Shown here: positions 647 to 27,329 of the stretch, piece by piece
Layout: each line of letters opens with the position of its first letter
How positions within the stretch are numbered: position 1 is the stretch's first letter
NCBI GenBank assembly: GCA_039802085.1
Contig: JBDRVU010000001.1
Span: 1 to 43,886 of the forward strand
DNA: 43,886 nt
Direction of reading: 5' to 3'
Source: a candidate division WOR-3 bacterium
GTDB taxonomy: Bacteria; Hydrothermota; Tepidihabitantia; Tepidihabitantales; JBDRVQ01
Notes under the pieces: model-generated
Databases searched by the model: none
Told to the model about the DNA's origin: nothing
Seen by the model: the letters and a program-made list of their open reading frames with translations, nothing else
Made by a program: the position numbers and the translations under genes

Positions 647-992
647 TAAATCAAAAAACCGAATACTTCGCCCCCATCCCTTTTATTCTCAAAATTGGAC
701 TCTGAATTAGAAATGGGATTGGACATTTTCTTAGGCTTTTTTTTAGACAAGAAATTGGTGATAAAATTAGACCTTTTTTCCCGAGAGAAATTGGGGGAAA
801 AATTAGACCTTTAACTTGGGGGAAAACTACCCATTAAAGTAGAGAAGGGAACTAAGGAAAAAGGTGGGAGGGGAGGTAATAGAAGAGGCGGTGGTAGGGC
901 TCACCTTAAGTTCAATCCAAAGATAAGTAAGTTATTGAAAATAAAAAACTTAAAAATAAATACCTCTTTTTAATAGGCGACTTTTATGTCGC
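647..992 (-). repeat. Copy 1 of a ~345-bp intergenic element with a phased 12-nt C(T/C)AAT array (core on the minus strand), a purine/pyrimidine-skewed block and a terminal hairpin
   Basis: ATT(A/G)G occurs at 694, 706, 718, 730(cttag), 742(tttag), 754, 766, 790, 802 and 814(acttg), all exactly 12 nt apart. The reverse complement aligns by eye over its whole length with 26339-26686. Hairpin: GCGAC(977-981)-TTTTAT-GTCGC(988-992). Confidence 0.8.
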
Positions 993-1094
993 ATTTCTTA
1001 TTAAAAGCACTAAAATTATACGATTTTTATCAAAAATATCTTATGATAGAAAAACCTACACTCCCTACTAGAAACTAATGGAGAGCCTAAATAG

Positions 1095-1924: not shown

Positions 1925-3631
1925 ATGAGAAAGATACTTTTAATGGGTAATCCCAATGTGGGGAAAAGTGTCATCTTCTCCCGTCTGACCGGCACTTATG
2001 TCGTTACTTCTAACTATCCCGGAACGACTGTGGGATTTACCAAAGGTTATACCAAAATCAATGGCGAAAAGGTAGAAGTGATTGATGTGCCCGGAGCCTA
2101 CACCTTAGAACCAACGAACACCGCGGAGGAGGTAGCAGTAAAGATGTTAGAGACCGCCAGCCAAGAAAAGGAGAATGTTGTTATTCAGGTGATTGATGCC
2201 ACCAATTTGGAAAGAAATCTCATCCTCACCTTACAACTTTTGAGTCGGAACCTTCCTCTCCTTATCGCCTTAAACCTTTGGGATGAGGCAAAGCATTTAG
2301 GGATTCAAATTGACTTTCAAAAATTAGAAGCAATCCTCGGCGTCCCGGTAGTGCCAACCGTCGCCATCACCGGCGAAGGGATTAAAGAACTGAAAGAGAA
2401 AATCCCAAAAGCGAAAAAAGGGAGATGCCTAACGGGCGAGAAATGGCAAGAGATTGGGAAGATTATTGATGAAGTCCAAAGGGTTAGCCATCGGCACCAT
2501 ACCTTCTCCGAGAAATTGAACGACTTAACCATCAGACCAGCGACCGGTTTGCCCCTTGCTTTGATTATTCTCTATCTCATTTTTCTTCTTGTCCGCTTGG
2601 GTGGAGAAAATTTAACTACCTATCTCTTAGACCCAATATTTAATAAACTCTATCTCCCACTTATAACCAAAATCATTACCCAAATCTCCCCTCCGAAATT
2701 CTTTCTTGAAATCCTACTCGGTAAAACTTTGGAACCCTTAAGTAGTTTTGGTCTTTTAACAACTGGACCTTATATCCCCTTCGTGATTGTTTTGCCCTAC
2801 CTTTTTATCTTTTATTTACTCTTAAGCCTTTTAGAAGATATTGGCTACCTGCCCCGTTTAGCCACCCTTCTTGATACATTTCTTCATCGTCTTGGTGTGC
2901 ACGGTTATTCCTCCGTACCGATTATTTTAGGTTTTGGTTGTAAAGTCCCCGCGCTTCTTGCCACTCGCATCTTAGAAACAAAAAGGGAAAAGGTAATTAC
3001 CACCGCTTTAATTATGATGATGGCACCCTGCCTTCCCCAAAGTGCGATGATTGTCAGTTTAATTGCCCCTTATGGCACAAAATATCTCTTCCTAATCTTC
3101 AGCCTTTTATTCTTTCTCTCCCTTTTCGTTAGTTTCCTTTTAAGTAAAGTTTTATCCGGCGAAACCTTAGAACTATTCTTAGAAATCCCCCCCTATCGCC
3201 GACCGATATTTTCCCTTCTTGGCAAAAAGACCTGGCTCCGACTGAAAGCCTTCTTAAAGGAAGCGGTCCCTTTAATCTTCGGTGGCGTTTTTCTAATCAG
3301 CATCTTAGAACTTTTTGGGATAATAGATTTTATCGCAAAATTTTTGGGAAAACCTCTCCTCTACCTCCTGGGATTACCAGAAAGGACAATCGGTGTTATC
3401 GTCACGGGATTTCTCAGAAAGGATGTGAGTATTGCTCTTCTCTCCCTTCTTAATTTAACCCCAAAACAACTTATTATCGCCTCCCTCTTTCTCACTCTTT
3501 ACCTCCCCTGCCTTTCCACCTTTTTTGTGATGGGTAAGGAATTGCGTCTAAAGAATTTATTTCAGGTAGTCGTAATCCAATTTTTCTCGGGACTTTTTGT
3601 CGGATTTCTTCTTAACCACATACTAAATTGA
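1925..3631 (+). CDS. feoB: Ferrous iron transporter FeoB (G-domain plus polytopic membrane domain)
   Basis: N-terminal GNPNVGKS P-loop and DVPG, followed by a long hydrophobic permease region. Sits in feoA-feoB context. Confidence 0.95.
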   Translation: MRKILLMGNPNVGKSVIFSRLTGTYVVTSNYPGTTVGFTKGYTKINGEKVEVIDVPGAYTLEPTNTAEEVAVKMLETASQEKENVVIQVIDATNLERNLILTLQLLSRNLPLLIALNLWDEAKHLGIQIDFQKLEAILGVPVVPTVAITGEGIKELKEKIPKAKKGRCLTGEKWQEIGKIIDEVQRVSHRHHTFSEKLNDLTIRPATGLPLALIILYLIFLLVRLGGENLTTYLLDPIFNKLYLPLITKIITQISPPKFFLEILLGKTLEPLSSFGLLTTGPYIPFVIVLPYLFIFYLLLSLLEDIGYLPRLATLLDTFLHRLGVHGYSSVPIILGFGCKVPALLATRILETKREKVITTALIMMMAPCLPQSAMIVSLIAPYGTKYLFLIFSLLFFLSLFVSFLLSKVLSGETLELFLEIPPYRRPIFSLLGKKTWLRLKAFLKEAVPLIFGGVFLISILELFGIIDFIAKFLGKPLLYLLGLPERTIGVIVTGFLRKDVSIALLSLLNLTPKQLIIASLFLTLYLPCLSTFFVMGKELRLKNLFQVVVIQFFSGLFVGFLLNHILN

Positions 3632-3655
3632 CAGGATAAAAATATCTTTTATAAT
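3628..3655 (+). promoter_or_regulatory. Consensus sigma70-type promoter for tRNA-Leu (and probably tig)
   Basis: TTGACA (3628-3633, overlapping the feoB stop TGA 3629-3631), 16 nt, TATAAT (3650-3655). The tRNA 5' end lies 8 nt downstream. Confidence 0.7.
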
Positions 3656-15518: not shown

Positions 15519-15546
15519 TTGACATTTTCTAAGATTACTTTATAAT
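15519..15546 (+). promoter_or_regulatory. Perfect-consensus sigma70-type promoter firing into the 12-nt array
   Basis: TTGACA (15519-15524), 16-nt spacer, TATAAT (15541-15546). No ORF follows within about 370 nt. Confidence 0.65.
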
Positions 15547-15568
15547 ATAATAAATTGAATAATTAGTT

Positions 15569-15599
15569 AAACCCATCCCTTCCTTAAAGGGAGGGGTTT
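15569..15599 (+). other. Strong stem-loop (possible attenuator or terminator) about 15 nt downstream of the predicted TSS
   Basis: AAACCCATCCC / loop TTCCTTAAA / GGGAGGGGTTT gives 10 bp with one A.G mismatch, followed by TATCTTTAT. The left arm CCATCCC can alternatively pair with GGGATGG at 15629-15635. Confidence 0.45.
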
Positions 15600-15642
15600 A
15601 TCTTTATAAAAAGGGGTGAAGCATACAGGGGATGGTATCGGG

Positions 15643-15870
15643 GGTCTAAATAAAGGTTTAATAGAAGGCGTAATAGAAAATCTAATTAAGGGAATGATAG
15701 AAACTCTAAGAAAAGGGTTAATAAAAATAGTAATCGGAGCAATAATTAGAATGGTAATTGTGAGTCTAATTTGATGCGTAATAATAAATCTAATCGGGAG
15801 AATAACCAAAGGTCTAATTGAGAGACTAATTGGAGAAACAATTAAGGGCTTAATCAGGAGAGGCATTGAT
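15643..15870 (+). repeat. Nineteen contiguous, exactly phased 12-nt units with a TAAT core (copy 3 of the array family)
   Basis: Units ggtCTAAAtaaa, ggtTTAATagaa, ggcGTAATagaa, aatCTAATtaag ... ggcTTAATcagg. TAAT occupies unit positions 5-8 in 13 of 19 units, and 5 more are one mismatch away. No indel breaks the phase over 228 nt. Confidence 0.9.
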
Positions 15871-15892
15871 AAACACGGTTGTATTAAATTGA

Positions 15893-15921
15893 TTGACTTC
15901 TCCCTTAAGGTAGGTTATAAT
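15893..15921 (+). promoter_or_regulatory. Promoter of the 929-aa gene (leaderless geometry)
   Basis: TTGACT (15893-15898), 17 nt, TATAAT (15916-15921). ATG 15927 lies 5 nt after the -10. Confidence 0.6.
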
Positions 15922-15926
15922 GCCAG

Positions 15927-18716
15927 ATGCTTTTTATCCTTTTCTTCTTTTCTCTTTCTTCTCTGGATTCCTCCGAGATTGGTCTCATTGAAAAATGCCT
16001 CAATTCCTATCTCATCACCCAAAAAGAGTTATCCTTTGAAAAAAAGTGGGCAATTGATTCTACCTTTATCTTAAAAAAAGTGGCTAAATCCCTTGACCAA
16101 CCCCTTTGGCTTCCCTTTTACTTAGATTCCACCATCCACCGCTCAGATAGTTTAATTGACCTCCTGCCAAAATCACAGGAGATTAGCCTCTCTTCTCTAC
16201 CCGAGATAATTAAGTGCCTCATCAACATTATCCATAATTACCGTAAGGAATTGGTACCCCTCTATCGACAAGAGAAAGGACAAGTTTTATCTCCTGAGGA
16301 ATTGGACTACTTATTATATCTCTCACCCTATCTCTTCTCTGATGAGGAGGATACAACGGACGATTACCTAAAAGGCTTCCTCCATAAAGAGTTTAACCAA
16401 TCAATAAAATTTGATTCCCTAAAATTGCCTTCAGATAGTTTCTTTGTTGTGGTAAAGAAGTTAGATTACGAAGAGATTATCTCCCAATCTATTTCCCATC
16501 TGATGCGCTTTTCCCATTACCTAAAAGGATTAAAAGTCCCCAAGGAGAAGATTGATTGTCCCGGGGTCAAAGGAAAAGTCCATTATTATGAAGAAAATGA
16601 ATTCGGTAAGGTAGTGATTGGTTCAGAAGAAAATAATACTTATTATGAGGAGTTTTCTATCATTATTGACCTGGGCGGAAATGATATCTATCACTCTCCC
16701 AATGGCGCAATTGGCTTTTTCTCCCACCCCTTTTCCGCGATTATTGATTTTTCCGGTAACGACTTCTACCAAACAAAAAGACCTTTTGCCTTTGGGGGCA
16801 GTATCTTTGGCACAAGTATCCTCCTTGACTACCAAGGGAATGATGTCTATCGTGCCTCCGAGTATTCCTTAGGGAGTACCCTTTTTGGTTTAGGGATTCT
16901 CCTTGATTACGAAGGGGACGATTTTTATGAAGGAAAGACCTTCACCCAGGGGGCGGGTTTTTATGGTTTAGGTTTCCTTTTTGATTTTGGGGGTAATGAT
17001 ACCTACCGGGCTTATAACTTTGCCCAAGGCTTTGGTTCTACCTTTGGTTATGGTGCCCTGCTCGACCAATCAGGAAATGACATTTACTATGGGGGTGGCA
17101 AATTCTACCACGAACCACTTCTACCCAAAGACTTTCGCAGTTTTGCCCAGGGCTTTGCGATGGGCTTCCGACCGGATGCCGGCGGAGGCATTGGACTTCT
17201 TTATGATAAGAAAGGTAATGACTTTTATAACGGTGATGTCTTCTCTCAGGGAACGAGTTACTGGTATTCCTTAGGAATGCTCTTTGATAACGAAGGAAAC
17301 GACCAATATCTGGCGACCGAATACGCCCAAGGGGCCGGGATTCATTTAGCTTCTGGCATCCTGGTTGACCGTAATGGCAATGATAACTACTACTCCCGAC
17401 TCGGACCAGCCCAAGGCGAAGGACACGATTTTTCGGTTGGCATCTTAATTGATAGAGATGGTGATGACCACTATTATACCTCCGGTGGTCAGGGAATTGG
17501 TTTGACCAATTCCTTTGGTTTATTTTTAGATGCCAAAGGCGATGATACCTATTTAACCCGGGAGAAGGAGTTTGGTCAGGGCTGGGCAAATCCCTCCCGG
17601 GGATTTGGTGGGATAGGTATCTTCTTAGACCTGGGAGGCGAGGATTTATATCCCAAAGACTTAAAACCAGAAGAAATAACTTATTTCTTCAAAGGCTTTT
17701 ATGGTGCAGGAATTGATCAAAAGGGAAAAAAGGAAGAAAAGGAGGAAGAAGAAGAGCCAGTTGGCGATTTAGCAAACAAAAAAATTGAAGAGGTATTTAA
17801 GGGGGCAAGCGAATGGGAGGTTGGTAGTGCCAAAAAGAGGGTGAGGGAATATCGAAAGGAATTGATAAAAAGAGATACCCTCTCCCTCAAATATATCTTT
17901 TCTGAAAAGATTGCCACGAGGAATAGTTTAGAGTTAAGGGCGATTGAAGAATTTTGCGAATCCCTGCCGGAAAAGGTAATACCTTATTTATTAAAATACC
18001 TCTGGGATGAGAGGAAGGAAGCCCGGGCGAATGTCATCTATCTCTTAGGGAAATTGAAGGTGAAGTTCGCAGTTGATTCCTTAATTTCTGCTCTTAAAGG
18101 CCGGCGGTTGCCGAACGGTAAGATAATCCACAACCGACCCCGATGGATTATCTCCGCCCTCGGGGATATCTTTAAGATTGATTCTGTACCACCCAAAGAG
18201 GATTCCCTTCTGCGGGAAAAAGTTTTATCAGTAATCTTAAAATACCTAAACGATAAATACGAACCAACCCGCATTACCGCCACGGTTGCCTTAGGGAAGA
18301 TAAAAGAAAAAAAGACTCTCCCCTATCTCATAAAAACACTCTCGGACCCAATTTTCACCTGCCGCCAGGCCGCAGAGAATGCCATTAACGATTTTGGGAA
18401 GGGGGCAATTACCGAACTCCTCTTTTTCTTAAAACCATCCGCTAACCATCTTCTTCTCCGTAGTCTTATCTCTTGTCTGGGAAGACAAATTACAACCTTA
18501 AAGGAAGAAGAGGAAAACGAGAAGAAAAAGATTAGAAAAGCCCTCATCCCCTTTCTCTCTTTTCCGAAATCAGAGATTCGCCTGGCTACCATCTCCGCTT
18601 TATCTAACTTTAAGGACGAATACACAAAAAATATCTTAAAGAACCAATTGGCAGAAGAGACCGACCCGATTGTCTTAGATAAATTAAAAGTTATCCTTTA
18701 TGGAATTAATCCGTAA
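15927..18716 (+). CDS. Large uncharacterised protein: hydrophobic N-terminus, twelve ~26-aa 'hhD-x-x-G-(N/D)-D-x-Y' repeats, acidic/Lys linker, C-terminal HEAT/PBS-lyase-like repeats
   Basis: Repeats DLGGNDIY, DFSGNDFY, DYQGNDVY, DYEGDDFY, DFGGNDTY, DQSGNDIY, DKKGNDFY, DNEGNDQY, DRNGNDNY, DRDGDDHY, DAKGDDTY, DLGGEDLY (nt ~16660-17655). KEEKEEEEE linker. The C-terminus has HEAT-like helices (ARANVIYLLGKLK..AVDSLISAL; TRITATVALGKIKEKKTLPYLIKTLSD; IRLATISALSNFKD). Confidence 0.8.
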   Translation: MLFILFFFSLSSLDSSEIGLIEKCLNSYLITQKELSFEKKWAIDSTFILKKVAKSLDQPLWLPFYLDSTIHRSDSLIDLLPKSQEISLSSLPEIIKCLINIIHNYRKELVPLYRQEKGQVLSPEELDYLLYLSPYLFSDEEDTTDDYLKGFLHKEFNQSIKFDSLKLPSDSFFVVVKKLDYEEIISQSISHLMRFSHYLKGLKVPKEKIDCPGVKGKVHYYEENEFGKVVIGSEENNTYYEEFSIIIDLGGNDIYHSPNGAIGFFSHPFSAIIDFSGNDFYQTKRPFAFGGSIFGTSILLDYQGNDVYRASEYSLGSTLFGLGILLDYEGDDFYEGKTFTQGAGFYGLGFLFDFGGNDTYRAYNFAQGFGSTFGYGALLDQSGNDIYYGGGKFYHEPLLPKDFRSFAQGFAMGFRPDAGGGIGLLYDKKGNDFYNGDVFSQGTSYWYSLGMLFDNEGNDQYLATEYAQGAGIHLASGILVDRNGNDNYYSRLGPAQGEGHDFSVGILIDRDGDDHYYTSGGQGIGLTNSFGLFLDAKGDDTYLTREKEFGQGWANPSRGFGGIGIFLDLGGEDLYPKDLKPEEITYFFKGFYGAGIDQKGKKEEKEEEEEPVGDLANKKIEEVFKGASEWEVGSAKKRVREYRKELIKRDTLSLKYIFSEKIATRNSLELRAIEEFCESLPEKVIPYLLKYLWDERKEARANVIYLLGKLKVKFAVDSLISALKGRRLPNGKIIHNRPRWIISALGDIFKIDSVPPKEDSLLREKVLSVILKYLNDKYEPTRITATVALGKIKEKKTLPYLIKTLSDPIFTCRQAAENAINDFGKGAITELLFFLKPSANHLLLRSLISCLGRQITTLKEEEENEKKKIRKALIPFLSFPKSEIRLATISALSNFKDEYTKNILKNQLAEETDPIVLDKLKVILYGINP

Positions 18717-26225: not shown

Positions 26226-26338
26226 ACAACCACCTAAGATGAATAGATACCTAAAGGTCTTCTTAAGTTATTAATCTTAGTAGCTGATTTAGTTCATCGT
26301 CTTTAATCCCTGTTTCAAAAACTCATATTCTCATGTTA

Positions 26339-26686
26339 GGAGACTTTTATGTCGCCTATCAAAAAAGGGTATTTCTTTCTAAGTTTTTTATCTTCAATAA
26401 TTTACTTGTTTTTAGGATAAATTTAGAGTGAGCCCTACCACCACCTCCCCTACGACCCCCTTTCCCACCTCTTATCCCGGTTCCCTTCCCTACTTTCCCG
26501 ACCAATTCTTCCCCTAATTAAAGGTCTAATCTTCTCTCTAATTTTTCTTCTCAAAAAAGGTTTAATCTCTTTCCTAATCTATTCTCTAAGAAATGGCCTA
26601 AGAAAAGGTCTCATTCCTTGGCTAATCCCTATTCTAATTTTAGGAATAGAGGGATGGGTAGTTAGGCATTCGGTTTTTTAATTTGA
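26339..26686 (+). repeat. Copy 2 of the ~345-bp element (hairpin, conserved A/T block, C-rich block, phased 12-nt CTAAT array, GGGATGGG box, T-run)
   Basis: Units from 26511: cccCTAATtaaa, ggtCTAATcttc, tctCTAATtttt, cttCTCAAaaaa, ggtTTAATctct, ttcCTAATctat, tctCTAAGaaat, ggcCTAAGaaaa, ggtCTCATtcct, tggCTAATccct, attCTAATttta. The whole segment aligns by eye with the reverse complement of 647-992. Confidence 0.85.
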
Positions 26687-26732
26687 AACATTATTTAAAG
26701 GATATTAACAGGGGATGTCCGGAGGTCAGATA

Positions 26733-26760
26733 TTGACTTATCCTTTCCTTCCTTTATGCT
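26733..26760 (+). promoter_or_regulatory. Putative promoter of rsmD-coaD-obg-dprA (leaderless geometry)
   Basis: TTGACT (26733-26738), 16 nt, TATGCT (26755-26760). ATG ATG follows at 26763/26766, 2 or 5 nt after the -10. Confidence 0.5.
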
Positions 26761-26765
26761 ATATG

Positions 26766-27329
26766 ATGTTTATCACCGGTGGCGAATTAAAAGGGAAGAG
26801 GTTAAAATATCCAAAAGGGAAAATTCGTCCCACCGAAAGAATGGTAAAGTTAGCCATCTTCTCCGTTCTCGGAGAAAAGATAAAAGAGAGCAAGGTATTA
26901 GACCTTTTCTCCGGCCCGGGAGCGATGGGCATTGAGGCTTTATCCCGAGAGGCAAAAGAGGTCTATTTTGTGGAAAGTGATAAAAGAAATTTCTCTTACC
27001 TCTTAGAAAATATTAAAGGGTTAAAATCCTGCTACCCGATTAGAAAGGATGCCTTCAAGACCATTCCTACCCTAAAAGGAGAAAAATTTGACTTAATCTT
27101 CTTAGACCCTCCCTATCTCAAAGGGATGGTGGGAAAGATAATTGAAGAGATTGTTCGGTTTGACCTCCTAAAAGAAGAAGGGATAATCGTCGCCGAACAT
27201 CATAAAAAAGAAGAGATATTTTTACCCAGAGAGTTAAAAATAATAAAGCACAAGGTCTACGGTGAAACCAAAATCACCTTTTTGCAAAGGAGCGAAGATG
27301 AAAAGAGTAGTCTACCCGGGAAGTTTTGA
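26766..27329 (+). CDS. rsmD: 16S rRNA (guanine966-N2)-methyltransferase RsmD
   Basis: ITGGELKGKRL..P....RPT..MVK.AIFS, SAM motif LDLFSGPGAMGIEALS, FLDPPY. The start could be 26763 or 26766. The track start at 26715 runs through the promoter. Confidence 0.85.
   Translation: MFITGGELKGKRLKYPKGKIRPTERMVKLAIFSVLGEKIKESKVLDLFSGPGAMGIEALSREAKEVYFVESDKRNFSYLLENIKGLKSCYPIRKDAFKTIPTLKGEKFDLIFLDPPYLKGMVGKIIEEIVRFDLLKEEGIIVAEHHKKEEIFLPRELKIIKHKVYGETKITFLQRSEDEKSSLPGKF

Follow-up and report, generated by a model that had tools for sequence, protein, structure and literature searches.

Upstream of rsmD in a candidate division WOR-3 bacterium lies an element of about 345 nt that recurs, inverted, some 25 kb away, and the question raised by this locus is what the two copies are and whether any part of them is still in use. 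The DNA analyzed (the window) was the whole 43,886-nt stretch of contig JBDRVU010000001.1 (assembly GCA_039802085.1, positions 1 to 43,886 of the forward strand). A first-pass annotation had read the element as an expressed regulatory RNA with a CACCUCC block mimicking the 3' end of 16S rRNA, and/or as a pair of repeats flipping the 25-kb segment between them. Under our preferred explanation, held with something short of even confidence, the pair would have arisen by a genuine, ancient duplication of a chimeric gene remnant to which a hairpin-plus-box module is joined as a cap, with this module as the only plausibly active part.

An inverted-repeat search of the window paired positions 648-990 with 26342-26684 as arms of 343 nt that were 72% complementary and ungapped; the other inverted repeats in the window measured 25-35 nt, the next-longest being 35 nt. 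Copy 2 (26342..26684) lies on the forward strand, its body strand being the C-rich strand, and copy 1 (648..990) lies on the reverse strand and is the more decayed of the two. Alignment with MAFFT introduced no gap inside the element, and blastn returned an E-value of 7e-54. The copies were identical at 248 of 343 positions and differed by 95 substitutions (63 transitions and 32 transversions) with zero indels. These results bore out the inverted homology proposed in the first-pass annotation, and the features that it had listed were all found in place, including CTAAT at 26514, 26526, 26538 and onwards, GGGATGGG (26651-26658), and ATTCGGTTTTTT (26668-26679). The co-linearity of these modules was likewise confirmed, with a caveat as to their being conserved: the longest identical runs shared by the copies (15, 13, 12, 12, and 11 nt) are about what a uniform identity of 72% predicts, 1.4 runs of at least 13 nt being expected. 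The possibility of an assembly artefact was excluded, since copy 2 was unchanged in two independent assemblies (GCA_965648925.1 from NCBI and the Logan assembly of SRR27730043).

The larger part of each copy is a phased array with its tail, located at 26511..26681 on the forward strand in copy 2 and at 651..821 on the reverse strand in copy 1. The in-phase 12-mers described earlier were confirmed (self-identity of 0.51 at lag 12, against 0.26 at control lags) and, judged from the sequence, their CTAAT phasing is the footprint of a four-residue repeat, x-Leu-Ile-x, with CTA ATx at every fourth codon. In this Leu-Ile frame copy 2 reads PLIKGLIFSLIF...GIEGWVVRHSVF and copy 1 reads PQVKGLIFPPISLGKKGLILSPIS...KYSVF. 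The general repeat unit is x-Leu/Ile/Val-Ile-x, with a 12-residue super-repeat, LIKGLIxxLIxx. A third array in the window (15639..15870, forward strand) belongs to the same repeat-protein family and is fuller and better preserved, with 19 contiguous 12-nt units ending in TAAT. There, TA is preceded by C, T, G, or A, giving Leu, Leu, Val, or Ile, respectively; the base after TAAT is never G, and the codon is accordingly always Ile and never Met; and KGLI is spelled by four different codon sets. Together, these features indicated a codon-level signature in the frame xTA-ATx. The third array is preceded by a TTGACA-N17-TATAAT promoter and a conserved head (15521..15645, forward strand). A homologue at another genomic site in relatives L015 and L016 has a head identical at 55 of 59 positions and the same 19 units without gaps; the arrays themselves are about 50% identical, and essentially only TAAT and the register survive. 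The Leu-Ile frame of the third array contains one TGA and has GTG as its only start, and a complete antisense open reading frame (ORF) of 99 amino acids (15567..15866, reverse strand) is probably spurious.

An exhaustive HMMER search with the third-array ORF recovered P0242, a protein of 81 amino acids (E 7.8e-4) whose cluster mates are annotated hypothetical proteins in several WOR-3 metagenome-assembled genomes. Its AlphaFold model is one long helix spanning residues 11-70, of moderate confidence (mean predicted local distance difference test score of 63.5). No relative of P0242 was found in Pfam, NCBIfam, or PDB, and searches of these databases with the element peptides were likewise empty; a protein search with concatenated six-frame peptides also found nothing, having probably been swamped by low-complexity words. 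Compared with the small ORFs, the Leu-Ile frame of copy 2 gave E-values of 2e-7 against the L015 ORF (57% identity over 35 amino acids), 1.4e-4 against P0242, and 7e-4 against the third array; that of copy 1 gave 0.003-0.03, and the other ten frames of the two arrays gave nothing better than 0.7. The protein alignment was ungapped and ended at the same stop position, so the element body would correspond to the C-terminal two-thirds of a family ORF. The family head (TTTATCTTTATAAAA..GTG.AGCATACAGGGGATGG) and the N-terminus M-x-HTGDGI are not present in copies 1 and 2, which carry the box and a C-rich spacer instead. The tetrapeptide-repeat ORFs of this family are putative coding sequences. In near-identical strains (L021, L154, and L155; 3001-3246), 5-7 differences were counted in the 246-nt repeat ORF against 2-8 in 590 nt of flanking non-coding DNA; they fell on mixed codon positions, with non-synonymous changes as frequent as synonymous ones, and in two genomes the GTG start is followed by TAG.

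Neither copy contains an intact ORF of this kind. No ATG, GTG, or TTG and no purine-rich ribosome-binding site was found in the Leu-Ile frame of either copy, and the fragment is therefore most likely no longer translated. Copy 1 carries two stops in this frame within the C-rich part and has lost six of its twelve phased leucines, four of them by CTA to CCA changes (Leu to Pro). The ratio of non-synonymous to synonymous differences (pN/pS) between the copies was 0.5-0.6 in four frames and about 1 in two, no frame standing out. Coding in any of the six frames was rejected on the basis of ORF lists, pN/pS, and a permutation test, which gave no frame-specific constraint between the copies; a 48-codon ORF on the G strand showed an apparent excess of amino acid identity, which was matched by other frames and arose because substitutions are clustered. 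Entry into the array frame from the GTG frame by programmed -1 frameshifting was also dismissed, no slippery heptamer in the right phase being common to the copies.

The C-rich, G-poor spacer begins at GTGAGCCC and occupies 26428..26512 on the forward strand in copy 2 and 820..904 on the reverse strand in copy 1. It has no conserved reading frame (pN/pS of about 1 in its GTG frame). The anti-Shine-Dalgarno-like block noted previously, CACCTCC at 26442-26448 in copy 2, is not conserved: the homologous position in copy 1 reads CGCCTCT, and the CCTCC that copy 1 does have lies 12 nt away. One or two CCTCC pentamers are expected by chance, by arithmetic from composition, in an 85-nt stretch of about 54% C. 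A G-quadruplex on the G strand was discarded too, being canonical in copy 2 only and thus not conserved.

Put together, copies 1 and 2 would descend from one chimeric two-part sequence. Its 3' two-thirds (array and tail) would be the C-terminal part of a lineage-specific small repeat ORF, and the gene's own head (promoter, ribosome site, start, and N-terminus) would have given way to the C-rich spacer, an imperfect palindrome of 25 nt, and a small hairpin. The resulting fragment most likely neither is translated any longer nor acts as a folded RNA, and the part most likely still functional would be the hairpin-plus-box module, the box being a putative target of an IHF-type architectural or DNA-bending protein. 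The homology, the protein similarity confined to one frame, the missing intact ORF, the absent RNA structure signal, and the repeated occurrence of the box beside promoters were observed; we infer from them that the box binds an IHF-like protein, that the body has lost its function, and in which order the events took place.

The box is the A/T block of the element, a 25-nt imperfect palindrome of the form TAAGT-N15-ACTTA. In copy 2 it reads TAAGTTTTTTATCTTCAATAATTTA (TAAGT-N15-AyTTA; 26380..26404, forward strand) and represents a putative IHF-like promoter-proximal protein site; in copy 1 it occupies 928..952 on the reverse strand and holds the exact 14-mer TTTTCAATAACTTA, which occurs twice in relative L018. 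The core consensus of E. coli IHF is WATCAANNNNTTR. When TTTTCAATAACTTA was compared with this consensus, 8 of 9 specified positions matched. IHF is known to bend DNA just upstream of the -24/-12 elements of sigma-54 promoters. This match, together with the promoter-proximal position of the box, suggests a site for an IHF-like bending or architectural protein, and TAAGTCCTTTATTTTCAATAACTTA as well as the boxes of copies 1 and 2 are putative targets of the WOR-3 IHF/HU proteins. In the element the order is hairpin, 23 nt, and box, that is, a palindromic unit adjoining an IHF consensus, and the box lies 150-200 bp upstream of divergent promoters, which serve fur in copy 1 and a small membrane-protein gene in copy 2.

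Searches of metagenomes with a degenerate box pattern fitted to six instances yielded more than 120 matching loci in 107 distinct contexts; the exact 28-nt A/T block had no match there. In five box contexts a strict sigma-54 promoter (TGGCAC-N5-TTGC) followed on the same strand 5-15 nt downstream, about 0.05 being expected by chance according to our own estimate, and these boxes precede unrelated genes, for instance a clpB-like gene. Boxes 5-15 nt upstream of perfect -24/-12 promoters were observed at loci L047, L074, L110, L133, L134, and L022. Eleven box contexts had a strict sigma-70 promoter downstream or divergent upstream. No sigma-54 promoter was found after the box in copies 1 and 2, where GG-N10-AG stands and not GG-N10-GC, and neither a sigma-54 nor a sigma-70 promoter was found inside the element. 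The box is also part of a separate repeat family, dispersed over metagenome contigs of hot-spring type in at least 13 distinct copies (loci L043, L055, L057, L064-L069, L085-L088, L099, L100, L111, L117, L119, and L125-L133). Its members consist of an A/T-rich palindromic terminator hairpin, 23 nt, the box, GAGCCTTTTTCTTAATTTTATCCCCCTTTGCTCCC, and a variable pyrimidine-rich tail of 12-nt periodicity, with no reading frame consistently open. A hidden Markov model of this family had copies 1 and 2 as its two best matches in the window, through the box only (E 0.013).

The hairpin of copy 2, GGAGAC-TTTTAT-GTCGCC (26339..26356), has five pairs and one A.G mismatch; that of copy 1, GCGAC-TTTTAT-GTCGC (976..993), is flagged as terminator-like on the forward strand. 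As had been noticed earlier, the loop is flipped relative to the body: the two loops match at two of six positions in the orientation of the element and at six of six as reverse complements. The chance alternative, estimated from a per-site identity of 72%, came out below about 1 in 1000. Stem-mediated inversion of a hairpin loop is a known phenomenon in organelle DNA, and the flip fits such an event.

Several observations weigh against the remnant reading. The 95 substitutions without a single indel in 343 nt contrast with the alignable intergenic DNA of this lineage, which shows small and large indels; dead sequence should have gathered several, and the zero-indel divergence stays puzzling. 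Decay is also uneven: copy 1 retains 5 phased leucines, and copy 2, which stays close to the family pattern, has leucine at 11 of its 12 phased positions, including the synonymous codons CTC and TTA. This hints that copy 2 is, or was until recently, under coding constraint. The two oddities would follow from constraint on copy 2 until recently, from copying on separate occasions from an intact master in another part of the genome, or from selection on the register. The sample is small, two copies being known. The alignments that link the element to the small ORFs are short and repeat-rich, and at the DNA level the link is weak, array-to-array searches being not significant. A few dozen of the more than 120 box matches could, by estimate, be chance occurrences in AT-rich DNA, and it is motif resemblance only that suggests IHF binding.

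Some of these difficulties would disappear if copy 2, and perhaps once copy 1, still encoded a hydrophobic single-helix repeat protein of 56-86 residues by way of a non-canonical start or coupling: translation could begin, for instance, at an ATT that overlaps the TAA closing the upstream GTG frame, or be coupled to that short frame. Such translation would account for the lack of indels; copy 2 has an open Leu-Ile frame of 86 codons with leucine, in synonymous variants, in 11 of 12 units; this frame is the one with the best family similarity (E 2e-7); and L015 offers the same geometry, its main ATG overlapping (TAATG) the stop of an upstream frame of 5 codons. Nevertheless, we regard this as rather unlikely: copy 2 lacks ATG, GTG, TTG, and a purine-rich ribosome site, having CCCC where relatives have GGGG; there is no conserved slippery site for a -1 shift; copy 1 is untranslatable because of its stops and prolines; and in this frame the copies show a pN/pS of 0.64 and an amino acid identity of 51%. 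Selection on the register could alternatively operate on DNA, the phased 12-bp units being bound cooperatively by a protein, as in plasmid iteron or centromere arrays, with helical phase keeping them in step. The lack of indels across 343 nt, the position of arrays next to promoters, and the third-array family, in which divergence has reached saturation except for TAAT and the phase and two genomes have the same 19 units, speak for this. It is quite improbable, though, as conservation in copies 1 and 2 is hardly higher at the motif positions than elsewhere (about 77% versus 67%), 12 bp is out of phase with the DNA helix, and both the frame-specific protein similarity and the choice of Leu, Leu, Val, or Ile before TA with avoidance of G after TAAT point to codons. 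A broader proposal, for which we see a minor but real chance, takes the arrays as an undescribed class of movable micro-gene cassettes for single-helix tetrapeptide-repeat proteins in which the hydrophobic dyad and the register are fixed and the rest is hypervariable. Such 12-nt arrays number three in the window, and in related WOR-3 genomes they occur at promoter-proximal hot spots upstream of rsmD, the HEAT-repeat gene, and tRNA-Leu, and downstream of tolB. On this view, copies 1 and 2 would represent a hydrophobic, box-capped variant still in use, acting as a non-canonically translated peptide or a phase-locked RNA/DNA scaffold, and such continued use would explain the zero indels.

The remaining explanations dwell on the transcript or on movement. 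If the C-rich strand were transcribed by read-through, it could be a very strong loading site for Rho and an insulator that halts transcription ahead of rsmD (copy 2) or of the convergent gene (copy 1). Positions 26433-26512 contain 43 C and 4 G, the highest value for an 80-nt window on the forward strand, and the copy 1 spacer has 33 C and 6 G per 80 nt; the spacers are thus the strongest or joint-strongest C>G stretches of their strands in the window. Folding predictions give an unusually unstructured RNA, and most array units provide a YC dimer every 12 nt (10-nt linkers), inside the [(YC)N9-13]n spacing used as a Rho descriptor (PMC6144790). The 12-nt period, however, is accounted for by the coding repeat and recurs in purine-rich arrays, which cannot be Rho utilization (rut) sites; comparably strong C>G regions are common antisense to genes, and the C-rich strand has no known upstream promoter and no known transcript. 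We consider this role distinctly unlikely. A still-movable, non-autonomous element similar to MITEs (miniature transposable elements with inverted repeats) or to repetitive extragenic palindromic (REP) sequences is highly improbable. Two dispersed copies ending in a hairpin, relatives without the element at the same sites, and contigs of relatives that often break just upstream of rsmD would agree with it, but no terminal inverted repeats are common to the copies (the weak AT-rich flank matches differ), no target-site duplication was found, the 28% divergence rules out recent movement, and no further copy turned up in about 150 fetched loci or in plasmid and phage collections. Hardly any credence, finally, is left for the RNA and inversion view from which the analysis started, and it was already largely refuted. 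In its favor, CCTCC does occur in both copies, and on the C strand RNAalifold proposed, from two sequences, one long-range helix of 13 pairs with three double (compensatory) changes. Against it, the CCTCC positions are non-homologous and expected from composition, and the claim of an expressed structured RNA had to be rejected, as it gained no support from Rfam (searched at the gathering threshold and at E<=5, without a match), from the four folds, or from RNAalifold run on each strand: z-scores against dinucleotide shuffles were +2.07, +0.88, +1.93, and +1.05 for both strands of both copies, that is, less stable than shuffled sequence. As for the 25-kb flip, an identical run of 15 nt is below the length usually needed for RecA recombination. 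Because the longest identical run at 72% identity is of this size and relatives are co-linear, with genes in unchanged order and orientation between fur and the HEAT-repeat gene, the inversion is unlikely.

In relatives with RsmD 64-83% or ClpX 81-93% identical, the element was absent at both sites, upstream of rsmD and of fur. The same spots hold other arrays or repeats in relatives (L018 20160-20400, L020 7920-8051, and L012 3266-3560, the last with a GATAY unit), L014 has an empty 113-nt site at the position of the third array, and the intergenic DNA of the lineage is full of replacements and indels. Turnover of the element and of the arrays between relatives thus looks cassette-like. Five independent contigs of relatives (L007, L008, L010, L011, and L013) stop 190-740 nt upstream of rsmD, which would be the outcome of assemblies breaking at repeated sequence there. 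Another repeat, shared within a relative, 75% identical over 159 nt (L009 3600-3790 and L018 7700-7870) and containing CCCTAATCACCTCC and GGGATATCCCCTAT, has one copy upstream of rsmD and the other upstream of tRNA-Leu. A scan of a genome collection that did not include this species, made with the DNA pattern GTGAGCCCTACCACCNCCTC, gave three matches in high-GC organisms, which were dismissed as chance.

Further observations concern the arrays. In the more distant WOR-3 relative L012, another 12-nt array (3264-3641) of about 23 GAYGATAYY units lies upstream of rsmD and is called as an acidic ORF of 125 amino acids with x-Asp-Ile/Thr-x repeats; tetrapeptide-repeat ORFs of other compositions thus exist at the same hot spot. 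Within copy 1, positions 736-812 show a clear super-period of 36 nt (three units) at 80% identity, and it is mainly every third unit that carries a Leu to Pro change, a pattern suggestive of exchange among the units of the array. To the left of copy 2, the flank (26304-26341) repeats the end of that copy's own array (26623-26645), TAATCCCTrTT ... TATTCTnATkTTAGGA, and is possibly a vestige of a former copy, tandem or deleted. Formal alignment of the downstream flank of copy 2 for a remnant of the small-ORF head found only a 10-nt identity, ACAGGGGATG, with no further support. A 26-nt stretch of the copy 2 array (26595-26620) is 85% complementary to the rsmD coding sequence (26891-26916), probably by chance; the 12-mer ATTAGACCTTTT, which encodes LDLF of the methyltransferase motif, is common to the array and rsmD. 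A CRISPR array was rejected, the units being contiguous degenerate 12-mers and not identical 24-48-nt repeats with unique spacers.

Homologues of RsmD and ClpX assign the host to candidate division WOR-3. The surroundings are those of an ordinary chromosome (fur-feoB, tRNA-Leu, tig-clpP-clpX, topA, rsmD-coaD-obg-dprA, and ftsZ). A replication origin or terminus between the copies was rejected, the GC skew merely tracking gene strand. The rsmD promoter (26733..26760, forward strand) is conserved in relatives and lies outside the element. Both rsmD (26733-26768) and the HEAT-repeat gene (15886-15929) have TTGACT-N16/17-TATxxT with ATG just 5-6 nt after the -10 box, suggesting leaderless mRNAs, and the start of the 204-residue RsmD at 26715 is probably 16-17 codons too early, since RsmD of relatives has 178-187 amino acids.

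If the remnant reading is true, the finding is mostly an ordinary one: a gene remnant that was duplicated and sits in intergenic DNA with fast turnover, in an uncultured phylum, with no anti-ribosome RNA and no inversion switch. The pair is modestly interesting in itself, and more value lies in what the first-pass annotation had missed, namely the apparent decayed tetrapeptide-repeat coding origin of the 12-mers, the third array, and the widely recurring promoter-proximal box. The first of these leads to an unannotated micro-ORF family in WOR-3 whose arrays diverge to about 50% identity while the heads stay more than 90% identical. The 25-nt box, found beside sigma-70 and sigma-54 promoters of many metagenomic genomes, could help to map a global architectural regulator in uncultured bacteria.

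The element was compared with several known systems. In E. coli, RIP/BIME elements are REP clusters that contain an IHF site. These, like the Correia/NEMIS elements of Neisseria, resemble the element in being short repeats located between genes close to promoters and in joining a palindromic unit to an IHF site; Correia elements differ in that they number in the hundreds and carry a TA duplication as well as terminal inverted repeats, whereas copies 1 and 2 show none of these features and have a putative IHF site known as a motif match. The role of the IHF site in Correia/NEMIS is itself still unclear (PMC2229807). The box is similar to the IHF sites of sigma-54 promoters in its location 5-15 nt upstream of TGGCAC-N5-TTGC in five unrelated contexts, and unlike classical IHF sites it is an imperfect palindrome, with no sigma-54 promoter in copies 1 and 2. 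The plasmid partition site tubC contains 12-bp iteron arrays. Such iterons share with the arrays described here the head-to-tail 12-bp units, whereas the latter are chromosomal, have units 50-70% alike, and bear a codon-level signature. With rut sites the element has in common the sequence criteria of an approximately 80-nt C>G stretch, little structure, and regular YC dimers with 9-13-nt linkers (PMC6144790), the difference being that its periodicity would be of coding origin. Finally, from gene remnants and duplicated pseudogene fragments it is set apart by the lack of indels after 28% divergence and by the fused hairpin-plus-box module common to other repeat families; it agrees with them in its frame-specific similarity to a real ORF family, its missing start codon, its stops and disruptive substitutions, and its presence or absence between close relatives.

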